Shown piece by piece: positions 5,933-38,498 of a stretch of 64,000 nt of DNA. Origin of the DNA: an uncultured Desulfosarcina sp. GTDB taxonomy: Bacteria; Desulfobacterota; Desulfobacteria; Desulfobacterales; Desulfosarcinaceae. Each line of letters begins with the position of its first letter. Position 1 is the stretch's first letter. The notes beneath the pieces are model-generated. The model was not told the origin of the DNA. It did not search any database and saw only the letters and a list, made by a program, of their open reading frames with translations. The translations under genes were made by a program, and so were the position numbers. The DNA is taken from NCBI GenBank assembly GCA_963674945.2, contig CAXXWQ010000004.1, positions 1,312,001-1,376,000 of the forward strand, written 5' to 3'.

Positions 5933-6206
5933 TCGTTTTGGACCGCACTGCTGGTATCCGACGACGGATCATGCCGACGATTACGACGGTTCTCACGCAC
6001 AATAATTTTATACCGGCTAACATAGAAGAACACTGCTGTGGATAAGAGAAATGGTTTCATATGCAATTAAACCGGCAGTATCCATATGGCGGGATTGGAA
6101 CAATAAAGGCGGCGCTGATGGGAAATACGTTTTGCACCTGATTGCCCGCCAATCGTGAAGGACATACAGTGGTGGACAGAAGCCTACATCACTTCGGGAG
6201 GTCACC

Positions 6207-26222: not shown

Positions 26223-26271
26223 TGGAGGCGGCAACCAGATTCGAACTGGTGAATGGAGGTTTTGCAGACCT
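26223..26271 (-). repeat. att site: 49-bp duplicate of the 3' part of tRNA-Cys
   Basis: Identical to 38424-38472 (TGGAGGCGGCAACC...TTTTGCAGACCT). Confidence 0.97.
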
Positions 26272-26330
26272 TTATTGACAGCCTGTAAGGGGTTGTTTTT
26301 TCAAGCTGTTTTTATCTCCAGAATTTTGCC

Positions 26331-26353
26331 TGTTGTGGATTTTGATGGGACTT
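26331..26353. repeat. 23-bp direct repeat shared with 38267-38289; candidate integrase arm-type sites
   Basis: TGTTGTGGATTTTGATGGGACTT occurs identically just inside both att ends. Confidence 0.75.
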
Positions 26354-26658
26354 GGTCAAGAGCTTTCACGGCGTTCAATTTATGGTCCGGCGATGGGTGT
26401 TGATACCGCATGGCCATCATTGTTGTCTTGTGCCCCATTATTTCCATTATGGTCTTCAAGTCTGCCCCTGCCATACCAAGTCTGCTTCCGAATGTGTGGC
26501 GTAGGTCATGAAACCGGAAACGGACTGTTTTATTCCCTTCCTTTCTTGTCAATTTGGCCTCTTTTACGGCATACCAAAAGGCATTCGTCAACTGGGTAAG
26601 TTTCCTACCTTTCGAAGTGCAAAACACATAATCGGATTCACTGACATCTAAACGTCTT

Positions 26659-28314
26659 CCTGTTTCCGTGGCACAAAACCTGATTAAAACACTATAACCA
26701 ATTGATAAAACATATATATTATGGTAATATTAGGGCACTAAACGCTCACTTCGGAGGTGAAATCAATGCGGCGTCCGATCACCATAAAACACGAGATGGA
26801 AAAACTTGCCAGTCATAGCGGATTGATCAATATCGGCGCATTACTTGATGCGATAAATTTCAGGTTCCGTTTCGAAAAGATCAACGGCGTCCATTGTGTA
26901 GACCCGAAAATTTCTCATGGTGACATTTTAGCTTCGATGATTGCTCTCATGAGTATTGGTAAACCTGATTACGATGCGATCGAGATTTTTCGTGAGAAGC
27001 AAGAATTTTTCAACAAGGCCATTGGCAATCGTGCATGCCCGTCAAGCCCGACATTGCGTCAGCGAATCGATTTGATCGGCAACCAAGCCGATAAGCTGAT
27101 TAAGGATGCAGGCGTTGATTTGGTTCGATCCTGCGCTCCGGCGATTTCACCCATCCAAACCAGTGCGGGTGATTTCCTTCCTTTGGATATGGATGTGAGT
27201 CCGTTTGACAACTCAAAGACTCAAAAGGAAGGCGTTTCCAGAACCTACAAAGGCACGGATGGCTTCGCTCCGATCTTTGCCTACCTGGGCACCGAGGGGT
27301 ATCTGGTGAATCTTGAGTTCAGAGAAGGAAAACAACACTGCCAGAAAAACACCCCCGAATTTATCAACGCCACCTTGGATTATGCCAGGCAAATTACCGA
27401 TCAGCCTATTTTGATGAGGTTGGATTCAGGAAACGACAGTCAAGACAACTTTCCTGACGATTCACGAAAGAATGTCCACTTTATCATCAAACGCAATTTG
27501 CGTAGAGAATCTGTTCAAAAGTGGGTTGATCTGGCAAAAAAATCCGGCAAGCAACAGCATTGCCGCTCAGGAAAATGTGTATGGATCGGAAAGACGATTG
27601 AAGACATCAACGGCAATCCATTGCGCTACCCAATCATCTTTGAGGTTACCGAAAGGCATACCAAAAAGGGCCAAGTACTGCTGTTCCCCGAGTATCAGAT
27701 CGATACCTATTGGTGCAGCCTCGCACAGTTGCCACCGGATGAGGTGATTCGACTTTATCACGATCACGGTACCAGCGAGCAGTTTCACTCCGAACTCAAA
27801 TCCGACATGGGCCTGGAGCGCTTGCCGAGCGGTCATTTTTCCACCAATAGCTTGATTCTTCATTTGGCGATGCTGACGTACAACATGCTACGGATTATCG
27901 GACAAATCAGCATCGAAGAGAGTGATCCGACTGAATTGCCCGGTATACGCCGGAAGAAAGTTACCCGGCGTCGAATCCGGACAGTCATGCAGGACTTGAT
28001 GTATATGGCCGGTCGATTAGTAACCAGAAGTAGAAAATGGTACATATCCTTTGGCCAACTCAATCCATTTTCCAAACTGATGGATCGGATTTATCTTCGT
28101 CTGAATTTGCTTTCCGCTATGAAGTAGCTATAATTTTTAAAAGAACAATTTTACAGGCATTTGCTTGGTGATTTGCTATGGCTAAAGAATGAGAAACAGG
28201 AGCAAAATTCCTTCGAAATTTGAAAATAGTGAGAAAAATTATCAACAAATGATGGTGTGTGAGGCAATCGCCCCGCGCCAATCCTAACAGCAAAAATTAG
28301 GCCACTGATTCAGG
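26659..28314 (+). mobile_element. IS1380-family insertion sequence, copy 1 (1656 bp)
   Basis: Imperfect terminal IRs CCTGTTTCCGTGG / CCTGAATCAGTGG, 5-bp TSD GTCTT (26654-26658, 28315-28319). Confidence 0.93.
26757..28127 (+). CDS. IS1380-family DDE transposase
   Basis: SHSGL N-terminus, LDMDVSPFDN, RLDSGND, YHDHGTSEQFHSELKSDMGLERLPSG; 456 aa. Confidence 0.92.
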   Translation: MKSMRRPITIKHEMEKLASHSGLINIGALLDAINFRFRFEKINGVHCVDPKISHGDILASMIALMSIGKPDYDAIEIFREKQEFFNKAIGNRACPSSPTLRQRIDLIGNQADKLIKDAGVDLVRSCAPAISPIQTSAGDFLPLDMDVSPFDNSKTQKEGVSRTYKGTDGFAPIFAYLGTEGYLVNLEFREGKQHCQKNTPEFINATLDYARQITDQPILMRLDSGNDSQDNFPDDSRKNVHFIIKRNLRRESVQKWVDLAKKSGKQQHCRSGKCVWIGKTIEDINGNPLRYPIIFEVTERHTKKGQVLLFPEYQIDTYWCSLAQLPPDEVIRLYHDHGTSEQFHSELKSDMGLERLPSGHFSTNSLILHLAMLTYNMLRIIGQISIEESDPTELPGIRRKKVTRRRIRTVMQDLMYMAGRLVTRSRKWYISFGQLNPFSKLMDRIYLRLNLLSAMK

Positions 28315-29150
28315 GTCTTTGTAAAACCTCCTTCAGCGTATCATTTAAAGGGACTTTTCTATTTTCGTGATTTTTGGTATCGGTGGCCAGCAAAAACCTA
28401 CCAGAGAGGTTTACATGGGCCTTCTTGAGATTGAATATTTCCGCTTGCCGTAGGCCGCTGTGAAGAGCCACCATTACCAAATCTCTCAAATATTTCTTTT
28501 TACCTCGTTGTGGGCTTTTTGCGCATTGATCAAGAAACCGTTTTTCCTGCCCCGGTGTCAATACCCACATCTTTTCATTATCTTCTTTCAGCAGCTTCAC
28601 ACCAGAAATAGGATTCGATCTTAAATATCCCCACTGAACGGCCATGTTCAGCATATTTCGAAGTGTGGCCACGTCCCTATTAATTGTTGCCGGAGCCTTC
28701 CCATCATCCCTTCTGAACTTCTTGTACCGCTCGACATCCAACGAGTAAATCGATGTCAAGAGCTTCCCCTTGAAATGAGGCGTCAACATGGTTATCGATT
28801 CCCCATTTCGCCTGGATGAGTTTGGCTTTTTATTCACCTTTGCATGTTCAAGGTATTTTTCGGCAAAGGTTTCAAATAAAATCCGTTTTGCCTTCTGTTG
28901 ATGCTTTCCTTCTTTAACTTCGGTCCTGAATTTACGATCCTCCTCTTTCGCAAAGGTTTTACTGACTTCCCCATGCGCTTTGGTGTACCTCCCTCCATTG
29001 TACCAAAAATCAGAATACCAGCTGTTACCACGTCTATACATGCTGCCTCCTTTTTTTCTAACGCCTGCCGCCCCAGGCGACCGCCTTGTAGGTTTGAACA
29101 CCCTGTAACTATGTATCAAAGAATTGTTTGGGAAGGACGGTGACTTATTT

Positions 29151-29218
29151 GATGAACGAACTTCTCACCGAGTTCTGGCCGCGGAGTGACCAGAAACCGG
29201 TGAAGAAGCAGGTTATCT
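29151..29218 (-). repeat. attC site of integron cassette 2 (68 bp)
   Basis: Minus strand: R'' AGATAAC -5- L'' TCTTCACC -hairpin- L' GGTGAGA -5- R' GTTCATC, with one extrahelical base in L''. Confidence 0.8.
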
Positions 29219-29947
29219 TTGGTTTTGTTTATTGTAAACTTTCATCATTGGAACGATAGTTTTTTCAATATATTTTTCTATTGCCGATGTCATTTCTGCA
29301 TCTGAGTATTTTTGTTTAATTTTGAAAATTTCATACCTACATGAGATGAAATTCAAAATATTGATACCCCATGAGAGGTCCTTGATGAATTTTACCAATC
29401 CTTTTTCCATATCATTGAAAATTTTCTTTTGACTTACTTTGACCCCAAATTGGAAGCTATCATTAAATTTTTGGCTTTGATCTTTAAAAAAATCTTGTTT
29501 TTGTAGGATTTCACCTGTTTTTTTACTTAGTGCTTCAGTATATGAAATTTTACTTAGCTTGTAGGCAACAATCGGTTTAACATTTGACAATTCAAGTATC
29601 GAATTACCAAAGTTTTGTTTAAAGGTTTCATCCACTTCGCGCGTAATTGGTTCAATTATAGAAGTTAAAAATTGAAGACAAAACTGATTCAAGGTGGATT
29701 CATCAACGCTCATTAATTCTTTCAATTTAGGATGTTCTTTCAAACGATTTGAGTATATAGCAATGAAGCTGTCAATATTTTTCAGGACAGAAGTTACGTG
29801 AAGAAGTTTTACAAGATAAAAAATTGATTGGTTAATAATTCTAATTTTTTGATACCGCTCTTTAAGAATAAAACCGGCCCCATTAAGTACCGAACCAACA
29901 AATAAGCCAAGCATACCAATTATTGCAGCTATGATTGTTGTATCCAT
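29213..29947 (-). CDS. Hypothetical protein (integron cassette 2 cargo) with N-terminal TM segment
   Basis: Very AT-rich 244-aa ORF whose stop codon lies inside the attC R'' box (AGATAAC). Confidence 0.8.
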   Translation of the reverse strand: MDTTIIAAIIGMLGLFVGSVLNGAGFILKERYQKIRIINQSIFYLVKLLHVTSVLKNIDSFIAIYSNRLKEHPKLKELMSVDESTLNQFCLQFLTSIIEPITREVDETFKQNFGNSILELSNVKPIVAYKLSKISYTEALSKKTGEILQKQDFFKDQSQKFNDSFQFGVKVSQKKIFNDMEKGLVKFIKDLSWGINILNFISCRYEIFKIKQKYSDAEMTSAIEKYIEKTIVPMMKVYNKQNQR

Positions 29948-29967
29948 TTTAATAATACCTGCTGAAG

Positions 29968-30098
29968 AGATAACGCTTCATTTCACCAGGGCGCAGGCAG
30001 GGAATATTAAGAGCTTTTGATAAAGATAAAGCTTTGATAAATCTATGCACTCCAAAAATGCCATGACCCCTGCGCTCTGGTGGAAATGGTGGTTGGGT
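29968..30098 (-). repeat. attC site of integron cassette 1 (131 bp)
   Basis: Minus strand: R'' ACCCAAC -5- L'' TTTCCACC ... L' GGTGAAA -6- R' GTTATCT; 19/20-nt arms; extrahelical C (G on bottom strand). Confidence 0.87.
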
Positions 30099-30113
30099 GA
30101 TGAATCATTATCA

Positions 30114-30797
30114 TTAAGACTCAAAGTTATTTCCTTTGCCGAGATTACATGCAGAACATTTTGTTTCAAGATTTTCCGGAACGGTTTCGCCACCTTTAGA
30201 CCATGGCACAATATGATCTACATGTAATTCAACTCCTGGTGAATTTAGTGGACTTGCCCCACACTTACGGCATGTGAAACCATCTCGCATAAGAATTCTA
30301 AAACGCAAGCGAAGTGAAATATTTCGTGACGTGCGCTTACGTGGTGGTGTTTTCTTTTCGAATTGTTGATCGACACTATTATCAGGGCTATCACCAGTTT
30401 CAATGTCTTGGTTGATATATTCTACAAAATTATTGAGTGCTTTTCGCCAGCTTCCGAATTTGCTCAGGTATGGCGTAATGGAGCAGTCTGAAATCGGAGG
30501 CTTCATATCTTTTGCTTTAGGTTGGCGACCAAGAGTTATCCAGACTTTCTCAAGGTTTTGAAAAAGATCTTTCTCAGACAGGTTAAAAACCATTCCTTTT
30601 TTTAGACCAGCCTTTTCTATGGTCTTGTTCCAAGAACCGAAACGCTTCATTAATGTATCTGGATGAAACTTACCGTGCTTTCCATACTCTGAGACAGATA
30701 CCGTATCCTTTCCCAGTTTTAAAGCGACCCTATTAAGGTCGGAAATCATTTCCTCAGAAGGGGTATCTCTATGATAAGTTTTCAATTCAAACTTCAT
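30114..30797 (-). CDS. HNH endonuclease with two N-terminal helical repeats (cassette 1 cargo)
   Basis: RDGFTCRKCG...LHVDHIVPWSKGG...NLETKCSACNLGK; repeated FGSW motif (KRFGSWNKTIEKAGL; SKFGSWRKAL). Confidence 0.88.
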   Translation of the reverse strand: MKFELKTYHRDTPSEEMISDLNRVALKLGKDTVSVSEYGKHGKFHPDTLMKRFGSWNKTIEKAGLKKGMVFNLSEKDLFQNLEKVWITLGRQPKAKDMKPPISDCSITPYLSKFGSWRKALNNFVEYINQDIETGDSPDNSVDQQFEKKTPPRKRTSRNISLRLRFRILMRDGFTCRKCGASPLNSPGVELHVDHIVPWSKGGETVPENLETKCSACNLGKGNNFES

Positions 30798-30827
30798 TAT
30801 ATTACGATCATTCCATTTTTTCTGAAC

Positions 30828-30891
30828 ACCCAACATTAATATTCTATAGACGTCTATTTTACGTCCAATATGGGGATGATATCTTGACGTC
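30828..30891 (-). other. Candidate attI-like insertion site
   Basis: G|TTGGGT at 30834-30828 (exact complement of cassette-1 R''), preceded by an AT-rich spacer and three GACGT repeats. Confidence 0.55.
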
Positions 30892-30988
30892 TTGATAACA
30901 CCCTGAATATGGGCAAAAAATAGAAGATTTCACTTTGCTACGTATTTGGAACCGGTTCTTTTTCAGGAAATGATGATTGGAGATTCAA

Positions 30989-31017
30989 AGAATATCCAAA
31001 GGTATTAAATCTGTCAA
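30989..31017 (-). promoter_or_regulatory. Sigma70 promoter facing the cassette array (Pc-like)
   Basis: TTGACA-17 nt-TATTCT about 155 bp upstream of the first cassette. Confidence 0.7.
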
Positions 31018-31097
31018 TCACCGGCTGGTCACAGTACGAACTCTCCAGGACTAAACACCTAAAAATGGCCCGTTATCAAAGGACCACCTCTTTGATG

Positions 31098-31122
31098 ATG
31101 GGGTGGTAAAACACCACCCCAT
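31098..31122. terminator. Hairpin after the C4-controlled gene pair
   Basis: ATGGGGTGGT-AAAAC-ACCACCCCAT perfect 10-bp stem. Confidence 0.5.
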
Positions 31123-31137
31123 ACTACCGTTGTCGGA

Positions 31138-31494
31138 TCAACCAAGCAGATCTTTTAACCTACGGACAGAATTGAAGATTACCTCTTTTGGGTGTTCTTC
31201 GAGTCCACCCGCCAGGTTGGAAAGTTCGGAATAAGTTTTATAGATCTCCGAACCAATTGGACTTTTTAAAGGCACGGTTTCAGCATCCTCGATGGATTTC
31301 ACAGGCAACCTGTTTTCGTACTCATGTTTGTAAAACTCCCAAAGACCATCGCTTAAGGGTTTCAATAGGGGAGCCAAGCTTACGCTTTCGTCTAATCGTT
31401 CGTCAGCACAAAGGACGATTGAATATAGGCTATAGGCATAGCGTCTTATCTCATCCAAATTATCTTCAGGCGATAATAGCTTTTCAAACATCAC
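31138..31494 (-). CDS. Hypothetical protein, translationally coupled to upstream 63-aa ORF
   Basis: 118-aa ORF; start overlaps the upstream stop (GTGATG). Confidence 0.65.
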   Translation of the reverse strand: MMFEKLLSPEDNLDEIRRYAYSLYSIVLCADERLDESVSLAPLLKPLSDGLWEFYKHEYENRLPVKSIEDAETVPLKSPIGSEIYKTYSELSNLAGGLEEHPKEVIFNSVRRLKDLLG

Positions 31495-31682
31495 GCCACC
31501 CCCTTTCCAACACGGATCATGAAGGCAACCGTAGAGCGATATTTCGGACTTTTCGGATCTTCGACGTTGAACAGGTATAGAATACAGCCGAGAGTCTCTG
31601 TTTCGTCCTGAGAACCGATGTATTCAAGGAAAAATGGTGCAATGTTGTGGAGCAGGGACAGGTTGAAAAGAATTTGCTGCAT
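31491..31682 (-). CDS. 63-aa ORF in the icd/kil position, under antisense control
   Basis: AGGAGG RBS overlapping the b2 target site, ATG at 31682. Confidence 0.65.
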   Translation of the reverse strand: MQQILFNLSLLHNIAPFFLEYIGSQDETETLGCILYLFNVEDPKSPKYRSTVAFMIRVGKGVA

Positions 31683-31743
31683 GACGGAACCTCCTTGTGG
31701 TGTGTGGTGAAGGATTACCGCCATCTTTGTCTCCAAACAAAAA

Positions 31744-31820
31744 TGGCGGCGCACACACGGTTGGAGAACCGGCCCACAAGGATACCGGCGAGCCCGAAGG
31801 CTCCCGTATATGCACCGCCA
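31744..31820 (-). ncRNA. C4 (P1/P7)/CI (P4)-type antisense RNA, 77 nt
   Basis: 17-bp closing stem, GAGCC-TTCG-GGCTC hairpin, second hairpin loop CCTTGTGG and unpaired TCTCCAA, each complementary to paired targets upstream and downstream. Confidence 0.85.
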
Positions 31821-32068
31821 AAGTATAAACATAGTACAGAAACAGAAAAACGCCATACTATGAATTGGGCGCTTATGCACCTTGTGGAAAATCCGGTCTC
31901 CAAACCGGGCAACGGAATTTGCCGTTACAGATATATTCATAGTCGATGATAGAAACCGCGTCAAGGCTTTCGACATTTTTAAGGTGGGTGCTACTTCAGA
32001 TAGCCCCCTGGGCTCAGGAGGCACCCAGGAGGCAAAAGGTGGGCAAAGGAGTCAAACACCCACCACAA

Positions 32069-32764
32069 TCAATTATAATTCGGGTTTGGATTGAGCCCGC
32101 GGGGATTGATGGCTTTTGCAATTCCCAACTGCCGATACGCCTCCTTTTCGGCATCCGGTGAGGTGCTCAATTGCCCTCCCTTTGGATTGACTGGTCCTTT
32201 GCAACGGCCCTGGAGATTTCGCCAGTTAGAAACAAACACTTGTCTAAAATCCTCAACAATTTGCCCGTTACGGATTTTAAAATAACCTTGTGGGCTGTGT
32301 TTTTTCAATTGCGCCGTAAGCTGCTCGATAGCCTTATCAATATCTTCAAGCCGTTTTTCGCGCTCGGCGTCGGAGAGGGCCTCCTCATTTTTTCCAGCGA
32401 AGAGTACATCAATTGCCTTTTCCACATCCTCCCAATCAAGCTTGATGCAAACTTTTTGCAACTGTAAATTGCGTGTCGTTCGAATCATTAGCCTTGAAAA
32501 AGGATCATTGGCCGAGCCATTGCCCTTTGCCAAGTACTTTGCCAAATAAGCTATTCTTTGATCTTCATAGGCTTGCCATGATGCTTTGTATCGTTTCAGC
32601 ATATCTTCTTTAGCTGATTGGACCTTTTTGACCTCTGAGCACTTTGAACGAATGAATTTGATTTCATCCTTAATCTCTTGGCATCTTAAAAAATCGTCAA
32701 CCCATTCATATGATGCAAGACTGTCATAATATGGTGGATGGAAGTTATATTTTACGTGTCCCAC
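32069..32764 (-). CDS. Hypothetical satellite protein
   Basis: 231-aa intact ORF with GGGGG RBS and helical/coiled character. Confidence 0.7.
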   Translation of the reverse strand: MGHVKYNFHPPYYDSLASYEWVDDFLRCQEIKDEIKFIRSKCSEVKKVQSAKEDMLKRYKASWQAYEDQRIAYLAKYLAKGNGSANDPFSRLMIRTTRNLQLQKVCIKLDWEDVEKAIDVLFAGKNEEALSDAEREKRLEDIDKAIEQLTAQLKKHSPQGYFKIRNGQIVEDFRQVFVSNWRNLQGRCKGPVNPKGGQLSTSPDAEKEAYRQLGIAKAINPRGLNPNPNYN

Positions 32765-32776
32765 GGTTACCCCCTT

Positions 32777-33067
32777 CTATTGGTTTTCTCGCTCGATATA
32801 AGCCCTATGCACGTTGGGATGAAGGCGGATTACGGTGCGCATGGCGTCCACCTTACCGCAGCCATTGCGCTCCATGTGTTCGTCCACAAGCTGCTCAAAG
32901 GACTTTGTTTCATCATCTTCTGTCCGGTCGATAGGACCGCCTCCGGATTCAAGATAAGCCTTGTGGGCCTCCGGATCGGATCGAACTACGGCTTTCATGG
33001 CCTTGGTCACGCCGCACTTGTGCTTCGTCCGGTACTCTCTGACTTGTGATTGAAAAGACTTACCCAT
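32777..33067 (-). CDS. Small protein made of two copies of a ~40-aa helical repeat
   Basis: SFQSQVREYRTKHKCGVTKAMKAVVRSDPEAHKAYLE / SFEQLVDEHMERNGCGKVDAMRTVIRLHPNVHRAYIE. Confidence 0.75.
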   Translation of the reverse strand: MGKSFQSQVREYRTKHKCGVTKAMKAVVRSDPEAHKAYLESGGGPIDRTEDDETKSFEQLVDEHMERNGCGKVDAMRTVIRLHPNVHRAYIERENQ

Positions 33068-33078
33068 TTTTTTCCTTT

Positions 33079-33630
33079 CTACGAAAAGTCGACTTTAATG
33101 CCAGGGTTGAAGCTTTGTATAAACTCTCGATGAAGTCCGGGTTGCCTCCTGGCAACTTCCTGCATAGCCGAAGTCTTGCTGCATCGTCGTTTGGCCTGGA
33201 TAGTTGCAACAGCATCCATAAAATCGTTTTCATAAACATTACTGGACTGCTCAAGGTCCTTTAACAATCCATCTCTCACTTGTTTGAGCGCACTTACCTC
33301 CCCCGATGTATTCGTTGCCACAAGTCTCAACCCTTGAAACATTTCGTTTTCACCCAGCGCATCCCGGATATTCCTAAATTGATTGAGGGAAAGCCCAGCT
33401 TGTAAAATAGCCTCGAACCGCTCACACTGTTCGGGGCCAACAAAAGCTCGAAGCAATCCGATAATACGGGTTCTCTCGGCTTTGGAACTTGCGTCCCGTA
33501 TCTCCTGGTCGGCCTCCTGACGGGCATTTTCATAGATTTCACGGGCCTCCGCCTCATAAGGTGTCCCAATAAATTGAGCCAGCACGTCATTTTCTGAATC
33601 AGGTTTCTTTGGAAATTCAATTGTTTTCAT
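33079..33630 (-). CDS. Hypothetical protein, possible capsid-scaffold-like
   Basis: Coiled region with AERTRIIGLL and a C-terminal copy of the same ~40-aa repeat. Confidence 0.6.
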   Translation of the reverse strand: MKTIEFPKKPDSENDVLAQFIGTPYEAEAREIYENARQEADQEIRDASSKAERTRIIGLLRAFVGPEQCERFEAILQAGLSLNQFRNIRDALGENEMFQGLRLVATNTSGEVSALKQVRDGLLKDLEQSSNVYENDFMDAVATIQAKRRCSKTSAMQEVARRQPGLHREFIQSFNPGIKVDFS

Positions 33631-33722
33631 GCCTGCCCTTTCTTTTTGGATGGAAAAATGATTTGAAGTTTTTCCCTGATGATATCGAATCGATTCCCAA
33701 AAGTCTGGCAAGCCAGTCCATC

Positions 33723-33953
33723 TCAGTCCACCTCAGTCCCATTTTTTTCATGAATGTACGTCCCATTTTCCAATTGATAGGATTGGATGATTTTGTCGAT
33801 GTATGTATCCAGAGATTTTGAAGTGATTCGGACAGAACTTCCAATTTTGCCGCCTTCAAGCTTGCCAGCAGCCAAGAGTCGCCGGATGGTTTTCGGATGA
33901 CAGCTCAAAATTTCGGCTGCTTCATCAACCGTTAACAATCTTTTCACCGCCAC
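33723..33953 (-). CDS. Excisionase-family (HTH_17) DNA-binding protein
   Basis: LLTVDEAAEILSCHPKTIRRLLAAGKL..KIGSSVRI. Confidence 0.88.
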   Translation of the reverse strand: MAVKRLLTVDEAAEILSCHPKTIRRLLAAGKLEGGKIGSSVRITSKSLDTYIDKIIQSYQLENGTYIHEKNGTEVD

Positions 33954-33988
33954 CCCCTATTTTCTATCCAAAGGGAAAAGCTCGAACC

Positions 33989-34292
33989 ATCGCAAAAGGA
34001 CTTGCGACCATTGTGTGAGGATCGAAAATCCGGAAAAAAGCCCAAAACGTTCTTTTTCTAAAAAAATCCAGTTCCTTATAATATATTACATATATTCTTT
34101 TGCGATGATGCGATGATTTTTCTAGTAAGTTTACTATAGAAAAATGTAAAAAATAGGATTTGGAGTTTATAGCAGGGGTAGTCGCATCCTCGCAGGTGAA
34201 GGGATTGAAAAATGACTTAACAACTTGTAATTTATTATAAAAGTACATTTTTTTAAGATTTTGTCCTATTTTTGATCCCCGCAATCCTCGCA
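33989..34292. other. Candidate replication origin (iterons plus AT-rich DNA)
   Basis: TCGCA/TGCGA pentamers at 33990, 34003, 34101, 34109, 34182, 34190 and 34288 around AT-rich tracts, directly downstream of the helicase gene. Confidence 0.55.
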
Positions 34293-35915
34293 TCATATCC
34301 CGAACGGTGCATCGTCGGCCGTCGTTCCCATCGGCCGACCACCACTTGGGCCAGTTGGTGCCTGATCTTTCCAATTAGTGAGTAAACCGATTCCCCGGTA
34401 CCAAACCAGCCGATCCGGTACTCTTTCAAATCTTTTACCCAGGATCGTCCCGAACCGCTTCTGACTGATCGGCGTGTTGGAAATGTTTTCCAACCACCAC
34501 TCGCTGAAATTGTTGAAAAGATCCTTTGCACCTCCCCAGGCCTCATCATGAACGATGCAATTGGCCGAAAGCCACTCCCCGATCAAATCCTCTTCGGCCT
34601 GGTATTTTGCGGTAGCGTCACGAACCATCGCAGGTGGATCAAGCCCACGCTTCTGCCACTCTAAGCATCCGCGAATCATCCACGCCAAGATTCCACTGGC
34701 CTCGGCTTTGAGCTTTTCCGGCAGCGCCTTGTCCATCGGGAATTCATTGGGGTTTTGCGGATCATGATCGACAAAAACAGCATTGAAGGGTACCAGGTGC
34801 ATACGCCGCCAGAAGGCATAATCGTTGGCCGGCGCCCGTGGTTTGTCGTTGCAAATCAGAACGATCTTATGGGTTGGTGTGAAAGTGATTGGGTGTTTGT
34901 CGTGAGGATTTCTCCCGGTGAGTGAGTCGCCTCCGGTAAACCGTTTGACCGCCGACGCTGAAAACTTACGGCCATCATCGCTTTCGCTGGCCAAGGCCAG
35001 CCGTAAGCCTTTGAGCGCCATTATATCAGGCGAAGGCCCGGCGCTGTTTCTTATTCGGCCCTGGTCAAGCAGCATCTCAGGCTGTAAGACAGACGCGAGA
35101 GGTCCCATGACGTACTTGATCGTTTCGACTTCTGTTCCCTTGCCATTGCGTCCATCACCATAGAAGACCGGAAAAATGTGCTCACTGATATCACCGGTGG
35201 TAAAGTATCCTGCTAACCGCCTATGGTAGTTTTCCATTTCAACCATGGATAAGGTGACATCTTTCAAAAAACGGTCCCAGGTTGGCGCTGGATGATCGAT
35301 TCCTAAAAATTCAATTGGACTTGCCAACAGAATATTGTCTTCCGGCCTGCCTGGTCGCCCTTCTCCAGTTCGTAGGTCGATCACGCAGTTGGCGCAGCCA
35401 AGCAGCATCGGATCACGATCAAGCCTTTCAGACTCAATAACGATTCGATTATATTTGTTATTTGATGCAAAGCTCAGTGTTGATGATCGACCGTGCTCAC
35501 TCCTCAAGCGCTTAACCTGTTTGAAGATTTCGCTCTGGATGCGCTGGTAAAATGCAACCAACTTTTTATCTTCAGCCTCAGTTGCTTCAGAAATTTGATA
35601 TGCCGCGACATGAATCTGTTTGAGAAGCCAAATGACAACATCTTCAACAGAAGCCCGTGCCCTGCCAGTTGTGTCTCTCTTCCAGTGGTGGCCCTGCCAT
35701 TCAAGCCACTCGTCGGAAGTCGCATTGAAAATAAAACGCCCTTCAAACATATCCGCAAAGACCAGCCCACAGAATTGCTCACCACCATTGAGGATGTCGG
35801 TTATCTTGACCGTCCGAACCTGGTTAGCTTCCGGTTCTTCCTGGCCTTTGTCGGCAGCCTCTTCTTGGGCAACGCGGGCTTGAACTTTCCTTTTGATATC
35901 GTCAATCTCACTCAC
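34293..35915 (-). CDS. P4-family/D5-like SF3 helicase (phage/plasmid primase C-terminal type)
   Basis: D5_N-like (WLEWQGHHWKRD, LLGCANCVIDLRTG), Walker A GDGRNGKGT, KRFTGGDSLTGR, CNDKP, FWRRMHLVPF; GTG start at 35915 inferred. Confidence 0.9.
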   Translation of the reverse strand: MSEIDDIKRKVQARVAQEEAADKGQEEPEANQVRTVKITDILNGGEQFCGLVFADMFEGRFIFNATSDEWLEWQGHHWKRDTTGRARASVEDVVIWLLKQIHVAAYQISEATEAEDKKLVAFYQRIQSEIFKQVKRLRSEHGRSSTLSFASNNKYNRIVIESERLDRDPMLLGCANCVIDLRTGEGRPGRPEDNILLASPIEFLGIDHPAPTWDRFLKDVTLSMVEMENYHRRLAGYFTTGDISEHIFPVFYGDGRNGKGTEVETIKYVMGPLASVLQPEMLLDQGRIRNSAGPSPDIMALKGLRLALASESDDGRKFSASAVKRFTGGDSLTGRNPHDKHPITFTPTHKIVLICNDKPRAPANDYAFWRRMHLVPFNAVFVDHDPQNPNEFPMDKALPEKLKAEASGILAWMIRGCLEWQKRGLDPPAMVRDATAKYQAEEDLIGEWLSANCIVHDEAWGGAKDLFNNFSEWWLENISNTPISQKRFGTILGKRFERVPDRLVWYRGIGLLTNWKDQAPTGPSGGRPMGTTADDAPFGI

Positions 35916-36480
35916 GGAGTGCGGCCTCCTTGTACGGACACTGGTTACACCAATCACCGTTTGGGTTGCGGCGGACCACAATTTTGATCTCATCCAGATG
36001 ACCGAGCTCGTCAAGCAGGTGCTCCACTTGTTTTAAGTAGAAGTCGTAGAGCAAATGGCCCTTTTCATGCTTACCGCCGACGATGATAATGGCATCCATT
36101 ATCGTTGTGCGGAACATGGTCTTCAGGCTTGCATCGAAAACCCCAATTGCCATAGCCTGGTTCAGTTCCACTTGAGAGCGCTCGACATACTTGCCTGCAA
36201 GTAGCTTGTTACGCATTTCTTGCTCTTCAGCCTTAGCTAGCAGCAGCCGGTTTTTTAGATCCAGGTTTTCAGTAGCGCTTTTCGGCGGGCGCTTATCGGT
36301 GAAAGGCAGGGGCTTTTTTTTAGCGTATTTGAGAAGGGATTTTTTGGGATATCTCCCACCTACACTTTCGATCAACCCAGGACGCTTGAGGTCTGAATAG
36401 AACGTTGAGCGGCTTACTTTGAACCCCTCGGCTTTCAAAAAAGCAATTGCTTCAGCTGCATTCAGTGTCTCTTCTGTCAT
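35908..36480 (-). CDS. Putative Nu1-like terminase small subunit / packaging protein
   Basis: N-terminal winged-HTH-like region, then coiled coil RLLLAKAEEQEMRNKLLAGKYVERSQV resembling lambda Nu1-type proteins. Confidence 0.55.
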   Translation of the reverse strand: MTEETLNAAEAIAFLKAEGFKVSRSTFYSDLKRPGLIESVGGRYPKKSLLKYAKKKPLPFTDKRPPKSATENLDLKNRLLLAKAEEQEMRNKLLAGKYVERSQVELNQAMAIGVFDASLKTMFRTTIMDAIIIVGGKHEKGHLLYDFYLKQVEHLLDELGHLDEIKIVVRRNPNGDWCNQCPYKEAALRE

Positions 36481-36656
36481 CTGTCCAATTTTCCGAGTTT
36501 TTTAGAAATTTCAAATGGATACGCCGATCGAGCCTTAGTCCGCCGCTCCATGGTATATTCCAGGAAGGACCCGCGAGGTCTACCCATCGATAGCTGTCGA
36601 TGCAGGGTTCATTGACCATTTGGCCGGAGAAAAATATGGGGGCGTGGGGGTTTCTC

Positions 36657-36863
36657 TCACCCATGGTTAAGATCCTCCACTTTGATACCTGGTGCATTCT
36701 GTATCCACCGCACTATCTCCGAGCGAATGAATAGCAGCCTACCGCCCGGTTTCCTGAAGGGTATCGCTCGACGCAATACAAGGTTGCGAACAGCGCCAGG
36801 CGATCTCTGGATCATCTCGGCGCATTGGTTGGTGTCCATGTATTCAGGCGGTAGCTGTTTCAT
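36657..36863 (-). CDS. AlpA/excisionase-like HTH protein
   Basis: YMDTNQCAEMIQRSPGAVRNLVLRRAIPFRKPGGRLLFIRSEIVRWI. Confidence 0.85.
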   Translation of the reverse strand: MKQLPPEYMDTNQCAEMIQRSPGAVRNLVLRRAIPFRKPGGRLLFIRSEIVRWIQNAPGIKVEDLNHG

Positions 36864-36879
36864 TTCCCTTCATCCAAAT

Positions 36880-36929
36880 AAAAAGGCCCGATGACAGAAC
36901 GGTTTCAAACCGTTTCCATCACCGGGCCT
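36880..36929 (-). terminator. Long hairpin plus U-tract just upstream of the alpA-like gene
   Basis: AGGCCCGGTGATGG-AAACGGTTTGAAACCGTTC-TGTCATCGGGCCT followed by a T-run on the minus strand. Confidence 0.6.
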
Positions 36930-36973
36930 GTCAAGAATCCTATAAAAAGGGCTTGAGTGGTATCCGGTACCCG

Positions 36974-37132
36974 CTAAATGGTTCTGGATTTTATATCGAC
37001 ATCAATCTCCTGGGCATGGCGAATCCCGCCTTCGTGAAGCGACAACCGCAAAAAAACTTCACCAGAACGTCTTTTTGATTTAAGTTCTTTTATAAATTCC
37101 ATCAGTCGATCTTCTGGGCTCTTACTCTTCAT
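36974..37132 (-). CDS. Small hypothetical protein (YezD/DUF2292-like pattern)
   Basis: 52 aa, SGEVFLRLSLHEGGIRH. Confidence 0.5.
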   Translation of the reverse strand: MKSKSPEDRLMEFIKELKSKRRSGEVFLRLSLHEGGIRHAQEIDVDIKSRTI

Positions 37133-37170
37133 TTCACAAATCCCCTTTGAATTTTGAACCTTTCTAACTA

Positions 37171-37404
37171 TCAAAAAATCTTTTCAAGATACTTGTTAGC
37201 AGCATCTTTGTTTGGGAATACATAGCAAAGTAGGCCATTAGCACCGGATTTCTTGATCTTTTCCCACTGTCGTTCCCTTGCCCACTTCGCAATAACGGGA
37301 CCCTCATAACTTGGCCTTCCGGTTTCAACATTAAAAATGTTGGAAGTGATATATAAATCTTGTGAAAGCCCCATCAAGAAGCCCTTAGTTAATTTGCCGT
37401 GCAT
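37171..37404 (-). CDS. Small hypothetical protein
   Basis: AAGGAG RBS, 77 aa. Confidence 0.55.
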   Translation of the reverse strand: MHGKLTKGFLMGLSQDLYITSNIFNVETGRPSYEGPVIAKWARERQWEKIKKSGANGLLCYVFPNKDAANKYLEKIF

Positions 37405-37432
37405 GATTATCTCCTTTAATGCAGCGACTTGG

Positions 37433-38167
37433 TTATTTACTGTAAACAACCTTGTGAATTTCGTCGATGAAATCCCATCCGATTTCTTCAAATGTTCGCT
37501 CCCAAAAAGCATCTTCATCGAAATACATTTCGATTTGGTATTGAACATCCGAAACAGCCTTCCCAAGATTTAAGGCATGTGCCAAATCCTTGGTTTTGAG
37601 GGTTTGAGCCATAAGCATTAATTCTACGAATTCATCCGGAACCCTTTCAAAACTATCTTTTTCAATCACAGGGAAGCTCAATATCGTATTATGACCCTTC
37701 CAGTCTTGCTCAGAACAAAACCAAAGAAAAACACTACCATTTGGCTCCATTTCTTTCATTTTATTGAAAAATTTAGGTTGAATGATTTCCTTCTCTTCCG
37801 GTGACGCATCCAGATGGTCCGTTAGAAAATCCCATAGCGCACTGATTATGGTAAGTTTATGAATAATACCCTTTGATTCAGCATACCCTATTAATTTGAC
37901 AAGCTGTTTTTGGTCTATTTCGTCGATCATTTTGGCAACGGTTTTTCTGTCAAATCCAGAAGTCTTTAAGGTCTTGAACACCCCCAACTTATATAGGTCA
38001 TTTATTCCAAGCGTATGCGCAGGCCTCCCACGGCCACCAGACTTTTCACCTTCCTTTGGTTCGACGGCATCAAGGAAGCCAAGCCACTTGTTCAGCTCGT
38101 TTGTTGAAAGACTCAAAATGGCTTGAGCCTCTTTTTTGGAATATGTTCTAGAAAAGTCAAAACTCAT
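37433..38167 (-). CDS. MerR-like HTH regulator
   Basis: TYSKKEAQAILSLSTNELNKWL...GRGRPAHTLGINDLYKLGVFKTLKTSGF. Confidence 0.7.
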   Translation of the reverse strand: MSFDFSRTYSKKEAQAILSLSTNELNKWLGFLDAVEPKEGEKSGGRGRPAHTLGINDLYKLGVFKTLKTSGFDRKTVAKMIDEIDQKQLVKLIGYAESKGIIHKLTIISALWDFLTDHLDASPEEKEIIQPKFFNKMKEMEPNGSVFLWFCSEQDWKGHNTILSFPVIEKDSFERVPDEFVELMLMAQTLKTKDLAHALNLGKAVSDVQYQIEMYFDEDAFWERTFEEIGWDFIDEIHKVVYSK

Positions 38168-38362
38168 GATTTTTTCTCCACTCTGGATATTTAATAGACC
38201 ATCAAATAGTCATAGTCAAGTTTTTTTATCCAATGCGGATATTAATTAAAAATAGATAGGCTGAGGTGTTGTGGATTTTGATGGGACTTCATCGGCGAAA
38301 AGGGTACTTTTTGAGTATTTCTGTACTCTGAGTGATGTTTGCAGGTGAGAACTATGAAAAGC

Positions 38363-38389
38363 AAAAGGAGCCTTGTAAAGGCTCCTTTT
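38363..38389. terminator. Bidirectional intrinsic terminator downstream of the tRNA operon, inside the element
   Basis: AAAAGGAGCCTT-GTA-AAGGCTCCTTTT. Confidence 0.8.
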
Positions 38390-38423
38390 CTTTATAAATA
38401 TTCGGAATTTTGGGGCTTAGTTT

Positions 38424-38498
<75 letters not shown>

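Follow-up and report, generated by a model that had tools for sequence, protein, structure and literature searches.

Two integron cassettes at an orphan attI in a satellite-like island of an uncultured Desulfosarcina

How can integron gene cassettes come to lie in a phage-satellite-like island that encodes no integron integrase? This question is raised by a stretch of 64,000 nucleotides from the genome of an uncultured Desulfosarcina sp. (assembly GCA_963674945.2, contig CAXXWQ010000004.1, positions 1,312,001 to 1,376,000), referred to as the window, in whose coordinates all features are given; they lie on the minus strand unless stated otherwise. The initial annotation of this DNA described two cassettes with attC sites and proposed that a cargo hotspot of the satellite is filled by an IntI acting in trans, with export of the cassettes in phage particles.

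Judged by their anatomy, both are genuine integron gene cassettes. Cassette 1 (29975..30834, 860 bp) holds a gene with HNH_repeat and HNH nuclease domains (30114-30797) and closes with attC1 (29968..30098, 131 bp, spacers of 5 and 6); cassette 2 (29158..29974, 817 bp) holds an ORF for a 244-aa protein of no named family (29213-29947) and closes with attC2 (29151..29218, 68 bp, spacers of 5 and 5). On recomputation both lengths are those first given, and all boxes and the R/L spacing are present as they had been read. In either site L'' and L' pair at 7 of 7 positions once the extrahelical fourth base of L'' is taken out, and R'' is the exact complement of the first 7 nt of its own cassette, as had also been claimed. 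A strict attC heuristic finds two sites in the island; among 100 block shuffles it found one site in two and two sites in none. Folding z-scores of the bottom strand are -3.0 and -3.1. The covariance check suggested earlier gave one match in the window per model: R1, trained on 16 short attC that come from IntI-linked arrays in genomes other than this one, matches attC2 (29.7 bits, E 1.8e-4); R2, trained on 11 long attC that include three of the host's integron and one of an orphan array, matches attC1 (34.7 bits, E 2e-5), which together with its two close homologues was left out of training. Since the heuristic chose most training sites, the models keep some dependence on it. Moreover, attC1 is identical at 114 of 131 nt (87%) to an attC of an array downstream of an IntI in another genome (G023), and at 77% over 124 nt to one attC of the host's own integron. 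Having at least two attC and no intI nearby, the array is a CALIN by definition.

The island around the cassettes is bounded by a 49-bp direct repeat, one copy forming the 3' end of a tRNA-Cys gene (38424..38472) and the other the opposite att end (26223..26271), and measures 12.2 kb, or 10.5 kb without an insertion sequence. It encodes a small-terminase-like (terS-like) protein (35908..36480; a weak match to phrog_57, E 3.5e-4), homologues of which occur in prophage-like loci of the family with E-values to 3e-13, and a D5/P4-family replicative helicase (34293..36014; D5_N, and TIGR01613 above cut-off) in which no primase domain was detected. An excisionase-like HTH_17 protein (33723..33953) is supported by profile matches and also matches MerR weakly; alpA and stl had no match in the island, and the 244-aa first gene, looked up as a possible PICI regulator, had none in Pfam or PHROGs. 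A 183-aa protein (33079..33630) corresponds, as a stand-alone segment, to the C-terminal part of S49 protease proteins, and is predicted to be a capsid scaffold. It has 78 matches, of which 42 were examined (every one of the 38 with at least 246 aa and, among the shorter, the best four); 33 of these carry Peptidase_S49 and one a Clp protease. The model for a scaffold nested in the C-terminal part of a protease gene is the lambda C/Nu3 arrangement, by analogy with which we infer that the 183-aa protein is a stand-alone capsid scaffold. A 96-aa protein (32777..33067) has the same C-terminal motif twice (E 1.8e-5), and a search for longer forms of it found none. Further genes of the island specify a 231-aa protein (32069..32764) and a C4 antisense RNA (31739..31825; RF01695, 70.2 bits against a gathering score of 45) with an isrK/a1b1-like target directly upstream. 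Capsid, portal, holin and tail genes were sought among 15 ORFs against PHROGs and none was found, the only match being one to a tail chaperone at 0.013. From this gene content we infer a satellite that works in the manner of the PICIs, its membership against the published core list being incomplete.

The island has a phage-type integrase in two parts, an N-terminal one (28310..29119; phrog_1, not IntI) and a C-terminal one recognised by profile matches (26301..26627). Between them lies an element with a DDE_Tnp_1_4 transposase, a family which we take to be IS1380 (26659..28314, plus strand), flanked by a 5-bp target duplication and present in more than 20 further copies in the genome. Against TIGR02249, with a cut-off of 265 bits, the integrase halves reach at most 26 bits, which bears out the claim that the island is without IntI; the scores likewise rule out the island integrase and a XerC-like gene of the window as IntI candidates. 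With its integrase split by IS1380, the island probably cannot excise itself now and appears immobilised in this strain, and the export of cassettes in phage particles that had been envisaged is for the same reason doubtful here. Public contigs span 29159-38450 in one piece without differences; as they probably come from the source sample, they support the assembly only. Their depth over the island equals that of the flanking chromosome and is not raised. No excised or empty form, no cassette circle and no excision joint was found in the contigs of four runs of one study, a kind of data that cannot show absence. A joint 26274-38458 was rejected as an excision junction, its 21-nt side falling in tRNA sequence. 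Also rejected were contigs sharing attC halves with the window up to the GTT or slightly beyond; they carry mismatches and hence come from other loci.

The entry point of the cassettes, which the initial annotation had missed, lies directly ahead of cassette 1. By homology and position, the first cassette begins at an attI homologue, whose core (30832..30867, crossover after the G at 30834) matches intI-adjacent sites of two other genomes of the order, G072 and G143, at 30 and 25 of 36 nt. The left arm of this attI ends a conserved platform (30835..31032) of ~37-bp repeat units, in which a Pc-like sigma-70 promoter facing the cassettes is predicted (30989..31017; consensus 10 of 12). Matches of this quality are no commoner in the real sequence than in shuffles, and the promoter is kept in a second genomic copy of the platform; read from 31017-30989, it could express the HNH gene. 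The start of that gene is more likely at 30797 (227 aa), the 240-aa ORF beginning within the docking site; a homologue of the cassette 2 protein in another genome (G345) also begins just past a GTT core. At 30834-30836 of the window, and at two other copies of the site (L046:9852, L157:7373), the crossover makes an ATG in frame with the first cassette gene, which may be chance or a start codon on offer. An anti-phage role of the cassette genes was considered and dropped, PADLOC giving domain-level matches only for the HNH protein and none for the cassette 2 protein. An HNH homologue on a Leptospira plasmid (47%) sits between repeats ending in GTT, to which the covariance models gave no score.

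The docking site belongs to a dispersed family. The 130 bp ahead of the first crossover recur in this genome and occur in 12 of 61 genomes, this one included; a 22-nt site pattern matched 18 of 401 genomes of the order, its reversed control none. At phylum level the pattern was found in 7 of 300 genomes and the control also in 7, so these matches are background. Exact site matches in named records fall to Desulfosarcina, Desulfobacteraceae and other deltaproteobacterial bins in 11 of 13 cases. We compiled 48 copies besides that of the window (40 fetched loci and 8 of this genome entered by hand), omitting duplicates, two reverse-strand self-matches and four weak matches of the genome itself; the contigs of some copies stop near the site. 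GTT continues the site in 32 of the 48. A scored attC lies within 2.5 kb in cassette orientation at 18 (7.6% at random positions; 0 in the opposite orientation), four of them at 20 bits or less, and at 13 of the 18 the R'' is exactly complementary to the first 7 nt; the remaining 30 have no scored attC nearby. A long-form IntI stands divergent from the site at two copies, those of G072 and G143, and no IntI profile match was found within 2.5 kb upstream of any other, the window's included. Thus 46 loci are orphans, 12 of which then carry a cassette with exactly matching ends.

These two complete integrons point to the clade of the cognate integrase. In G072 the intI that stands divergent from the site is of the long form and frameshifted. 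The best match to its protein in the 401 genomes is the IntI of G143 (67%), where the site is found at the same distance; both proteins exceed the TIGR02249 cut-off. Among 25 loci of a search for long-form IntIs the pattern matched at these two only; weaker sites, alike at their 3' ends (13-24 of 36 nt), lie upstream of five further long-form IntIs. Long-form IntIs at loci L192-L216 are of ~410-440 aa with an N-terminal extension of ~100 aa; at several of these loci the upstream motif of attI occurs again near the start of intI, possibly as an autoregulatory or accessory binding site. As to the origin of the platform, four orphans keep a full-length spacer, and the 42-nt unit of the window matches the element lying 210-212 nt upstream in these at 31-35 of 42 positions (shuffle maximum 24-25). 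In the two intI-linked spacers it reaches 25 of 42 only, at or near the shuffle maximum. The spacer of one orphan (L057) aligns with that of G072 into an eroded intI start, so the decay of integrons does produce orphans. The compact form of the platform is consistent with a deletion between repeats; an IntI carrying exactly this form was not found.

Taken together, we think it fairly probable that the locus is an integrase-less mini-integron in a PICI-like island, and that an IntI of the long form, none of which was found in the genome, probably brought the cassettes into the attI. This draws on what is read directly from the DNA, namely the anatomy of the cassettes, the homology of their entry site to intI-linked attI, the recurrence of that site without intI and the split integrase of the island. 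The spacer between a long-form intI and its attI would have become the compact platform through deletion between repeated motifs; at the G/TT crossover, a long-form IntI would have added cassette 2 first and cassette 1 afterwards. The platform would have taken the place of a primase gene of the satellite, such as a related element still has. Loading may have happened in trans or before loss of the intI, and either before or after the platform entered the island. Of the earlier idea of loading by integron recombination, the genuine cassettes thus stand, and the entry point becomes an orphan attI of the long-form IntI clade.

The compact platform might instead be maintained as a capture site, dispersed and free of an integrase, to which cassettes are still delivered in trans while it rides satellites and prophages, and which may itself move as an IntI circle from a GTT at ~31041 to attC2; this we regard as unlikely. 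About 200 bp of platform are indeed conserved across genomes and families while the first cassette differs at each copy; nine copies were counted in this genome and six matches in G009, and copies adjoin phage-like and Mu-like genes. On the other hand, searches of IMG/VR and of phage and plasmid collections returned no platform, the GTT is lost in a third of copies (16 of the 48), and G025, an assembly that is 98% complete, holds two copies with no IntI match. For movement, a weak lead comes from the second copy in this genome, the homology of which opens at the upstream GTT in the same register, and the DNA directly past attC2 resembles a platform-free locus (74% over 65 nt), but most other pairs are without a sharp shared 5' boundary. 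The upstream repeat was also rejected as the end of an insertion sequence, no sharp boundary being seen across copies. Single copies show diverse surroundings. Three outward-pointing platform copies flank a Mu-like prophage remnant at G000:C3:423418-436209 (L016/L017), the left array of which holds a kinase gene and, as a candidate for defence, PDC-M11A; one copy adjoins, facing away, another integrase-plus-primase island (L115:6003-11586); and another sits midway along a long array of cassettes, attC lying on either side of it (L045:7457-14316). A wider proposal combines both lines of thought: integrase-free pads of promoter plus attI, dispersed in bacteria of this order, would be reloaded in trans by long-form IntI and move by themselves, and one would have replaced the primase gene of a scaffold-encoding satellite, giving cassettes a phage-particle route. 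We put this forward tentatively, as a rather doubtful proposition.

The initial proposal, a cargo hotspot of the satellite family filled by the resident chromosomal IntI with export in phage particles, now appears quite improbable. In its favour, a single IntI above cut-off does exist elsewhere in the genome, as had been expected, intact on another contig with its own array, which holds the attC related to attC1; the island has satellite-type genes and a C4 RNA; and bioRxiv 2025.06.18.660453 states that CALINs can be mobilised in trans. The resident attI, however, matches the window's site at only 10 of 40 nt, and the resident enzyme is 45-52% identical to the long forms, of which none was found in the host assembly (98.7% complete). 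In the available text of PMC2095811, IntIs are reported to be strict for their own attI and tolerant for attC. The resident IntI, a short form, is therefore an improbable loader and a plausible exciser: it could likely excise cassette 2 by attC x attC recombination and would probably not reload the attI. Further points against the proposal are the split island integrase and the helper: no S49-plus-scaffold helper prophage came to light in this genome, and the capsid-E prophage inspected looks, on our reading of its gene list, Mu-like. The genome has two capsid-E prophage regions with equal scores (G000:C1:431253, G000:C3:1982729), and C1 and C3 share identical integrase fragments, which points to either a duplicated prophage or an assembly duplication. 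The host integron has a DarT with a NADAR antitoxin as its first cassette (L010:4557-5937), after which insertion elements interrupt the array. Between its intI and attI, at L010 ~6120-6135, lies a palindrome GAAC-N4-GTTC that resembles a LexA box. Orphan attI of two other integron classes, each heading an exact-ended cassette, lie at G000:C1:366316 and G000:C4:2544204; they match intI-linked spacers elsewhere at 82-83%, the second lacking 27 nt between repeats, so that orphan docking sites are common in this genome.

The notion of a hotspot belonging to the satellite itself also finds no support in comparison with its relatives. One well-assembled related element was found in 290 genomes of the order (G290), with the same gene order, ~10.7 kb and tRNA-Arg repeats, and the 231-aa protein is common to both. 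Where the window holds platform and cassettes, this element has a Zn-ribbon primase gene, which has no match in the window or its genome, and neither attC nor platform or attI is present at that position. Judged on this one element, the cassettes do not mark a hotspot shared by the whole satellite family, and the site itself occurs in many contexts. The 231-aa protein had one other homologue in a first search and occurs in 3 of the 290 genomes, two of them on short contigs. Helicase matches in 10 of 64 genomes of the family were rejected as island relatives, being mostly prophage-like and sharing with the island, beyond the helicase, no more than terS-like, o177 and integrase-fragment matches; metagenome and viral scans for relatives gave nothing usable. 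Insertion of the cassettes at a chance GTT secondary site, with the upstream repeat as no more than a promoter or regulatory motif, has very little probability. In the available text of bioRxiv 2022.09.11.507474, the GWT sites used by IntI are numerous in genomes and CALINs of just two cassettes are frequent, yet that study reports for attG a short motif and no further feature. Here, one and the same 36-nt site leads 12 further orphan loci in which the cassette ends match exactly, and in two integrons it lies where attI belongs.

Arrays that are small and lack an integrase are commonly taken for integron debris or for chance attG insertions. Here, dozens of them open at one conserved attI-derived platform, for which a cognate clade of integrases can be named and put to the test; how small CALINs arise thereby becomes testable in this order. 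Should the platform still be in use, it would give satellites and prophages without an IntI of their own a cassette-type exchange of cargo. As the island looks immobilised in this strain, the claim is limited accordingly.

How does the locus compare with known systems? In the literature searched, with subscription papers and supplements outside its scope, we found no account of attC cassettes in a satellite and none of a dispersed orphan-attI family. Within that search, the view that the combination is undescribed holds for cassettes in a satellite; some of its elements have been published. In the available text of Qi et al. 2023 (PMC9892861), an attI-headed CALIN without adjacent intI lies in the prophage-type element M16-3 of Shewanella, and phage attC sites are functional. 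There, a cognate intact integron is present in the same prophage, whereas here no cognate IntI was found in the genome, the element is satellite-like and the site belongs to a dispersed family; the main text of that paper does not use the word satellite. Anti-phage integron cassettes have likewise been published, as far as the available texts go. The P4-like satellites have psu, delta and sid as hallmark genes, for which the island gave no match in Pfam or PHROGs. With PICIs, as described in the available texts of PMC10085698 and PMC6092414, the island shares a size of ~10.5 kb, tRNA-end repeats, an integrase, a helicase, a terS-like gene and no capsid or tail gene found; it differs in its distal and interrupted integrase, in having no alpA/stl match and no primase, in its C4 RNA and in a scaffold-like gene instead of a capsid-morphogenesis gene. 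Small intI-free arrays with the integrase encoded elsewhere are also known as CALIN/SALIN with attG entry (Loot et al., bioRxiv 2022.09.11.507474); in the available text of that study entry is at an unconserved genomic site, here at a conserved attI homologue with its ~200-bp platform. Sites derived from attI that work away from their normal place are known from the Delta-attI cassettes of class 1 and 2 integrons, where, in the available text of PMC12901181, the attI fragment ends a cassette, while in the window the attI heads the array. Closest are the complete integrons of G072 and G143, with the same attI core, repeated upstream motif and attC cassettes, from which the window differs by the missing intI, a shortened spacer and a different upstream part. 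By sequence, then, what is new here is a first cassette at an orphan attI with a predicted promoter, at a site that recurs without intI. Every ingredient has a precedent, and the site family in its satellite context is worth testing.
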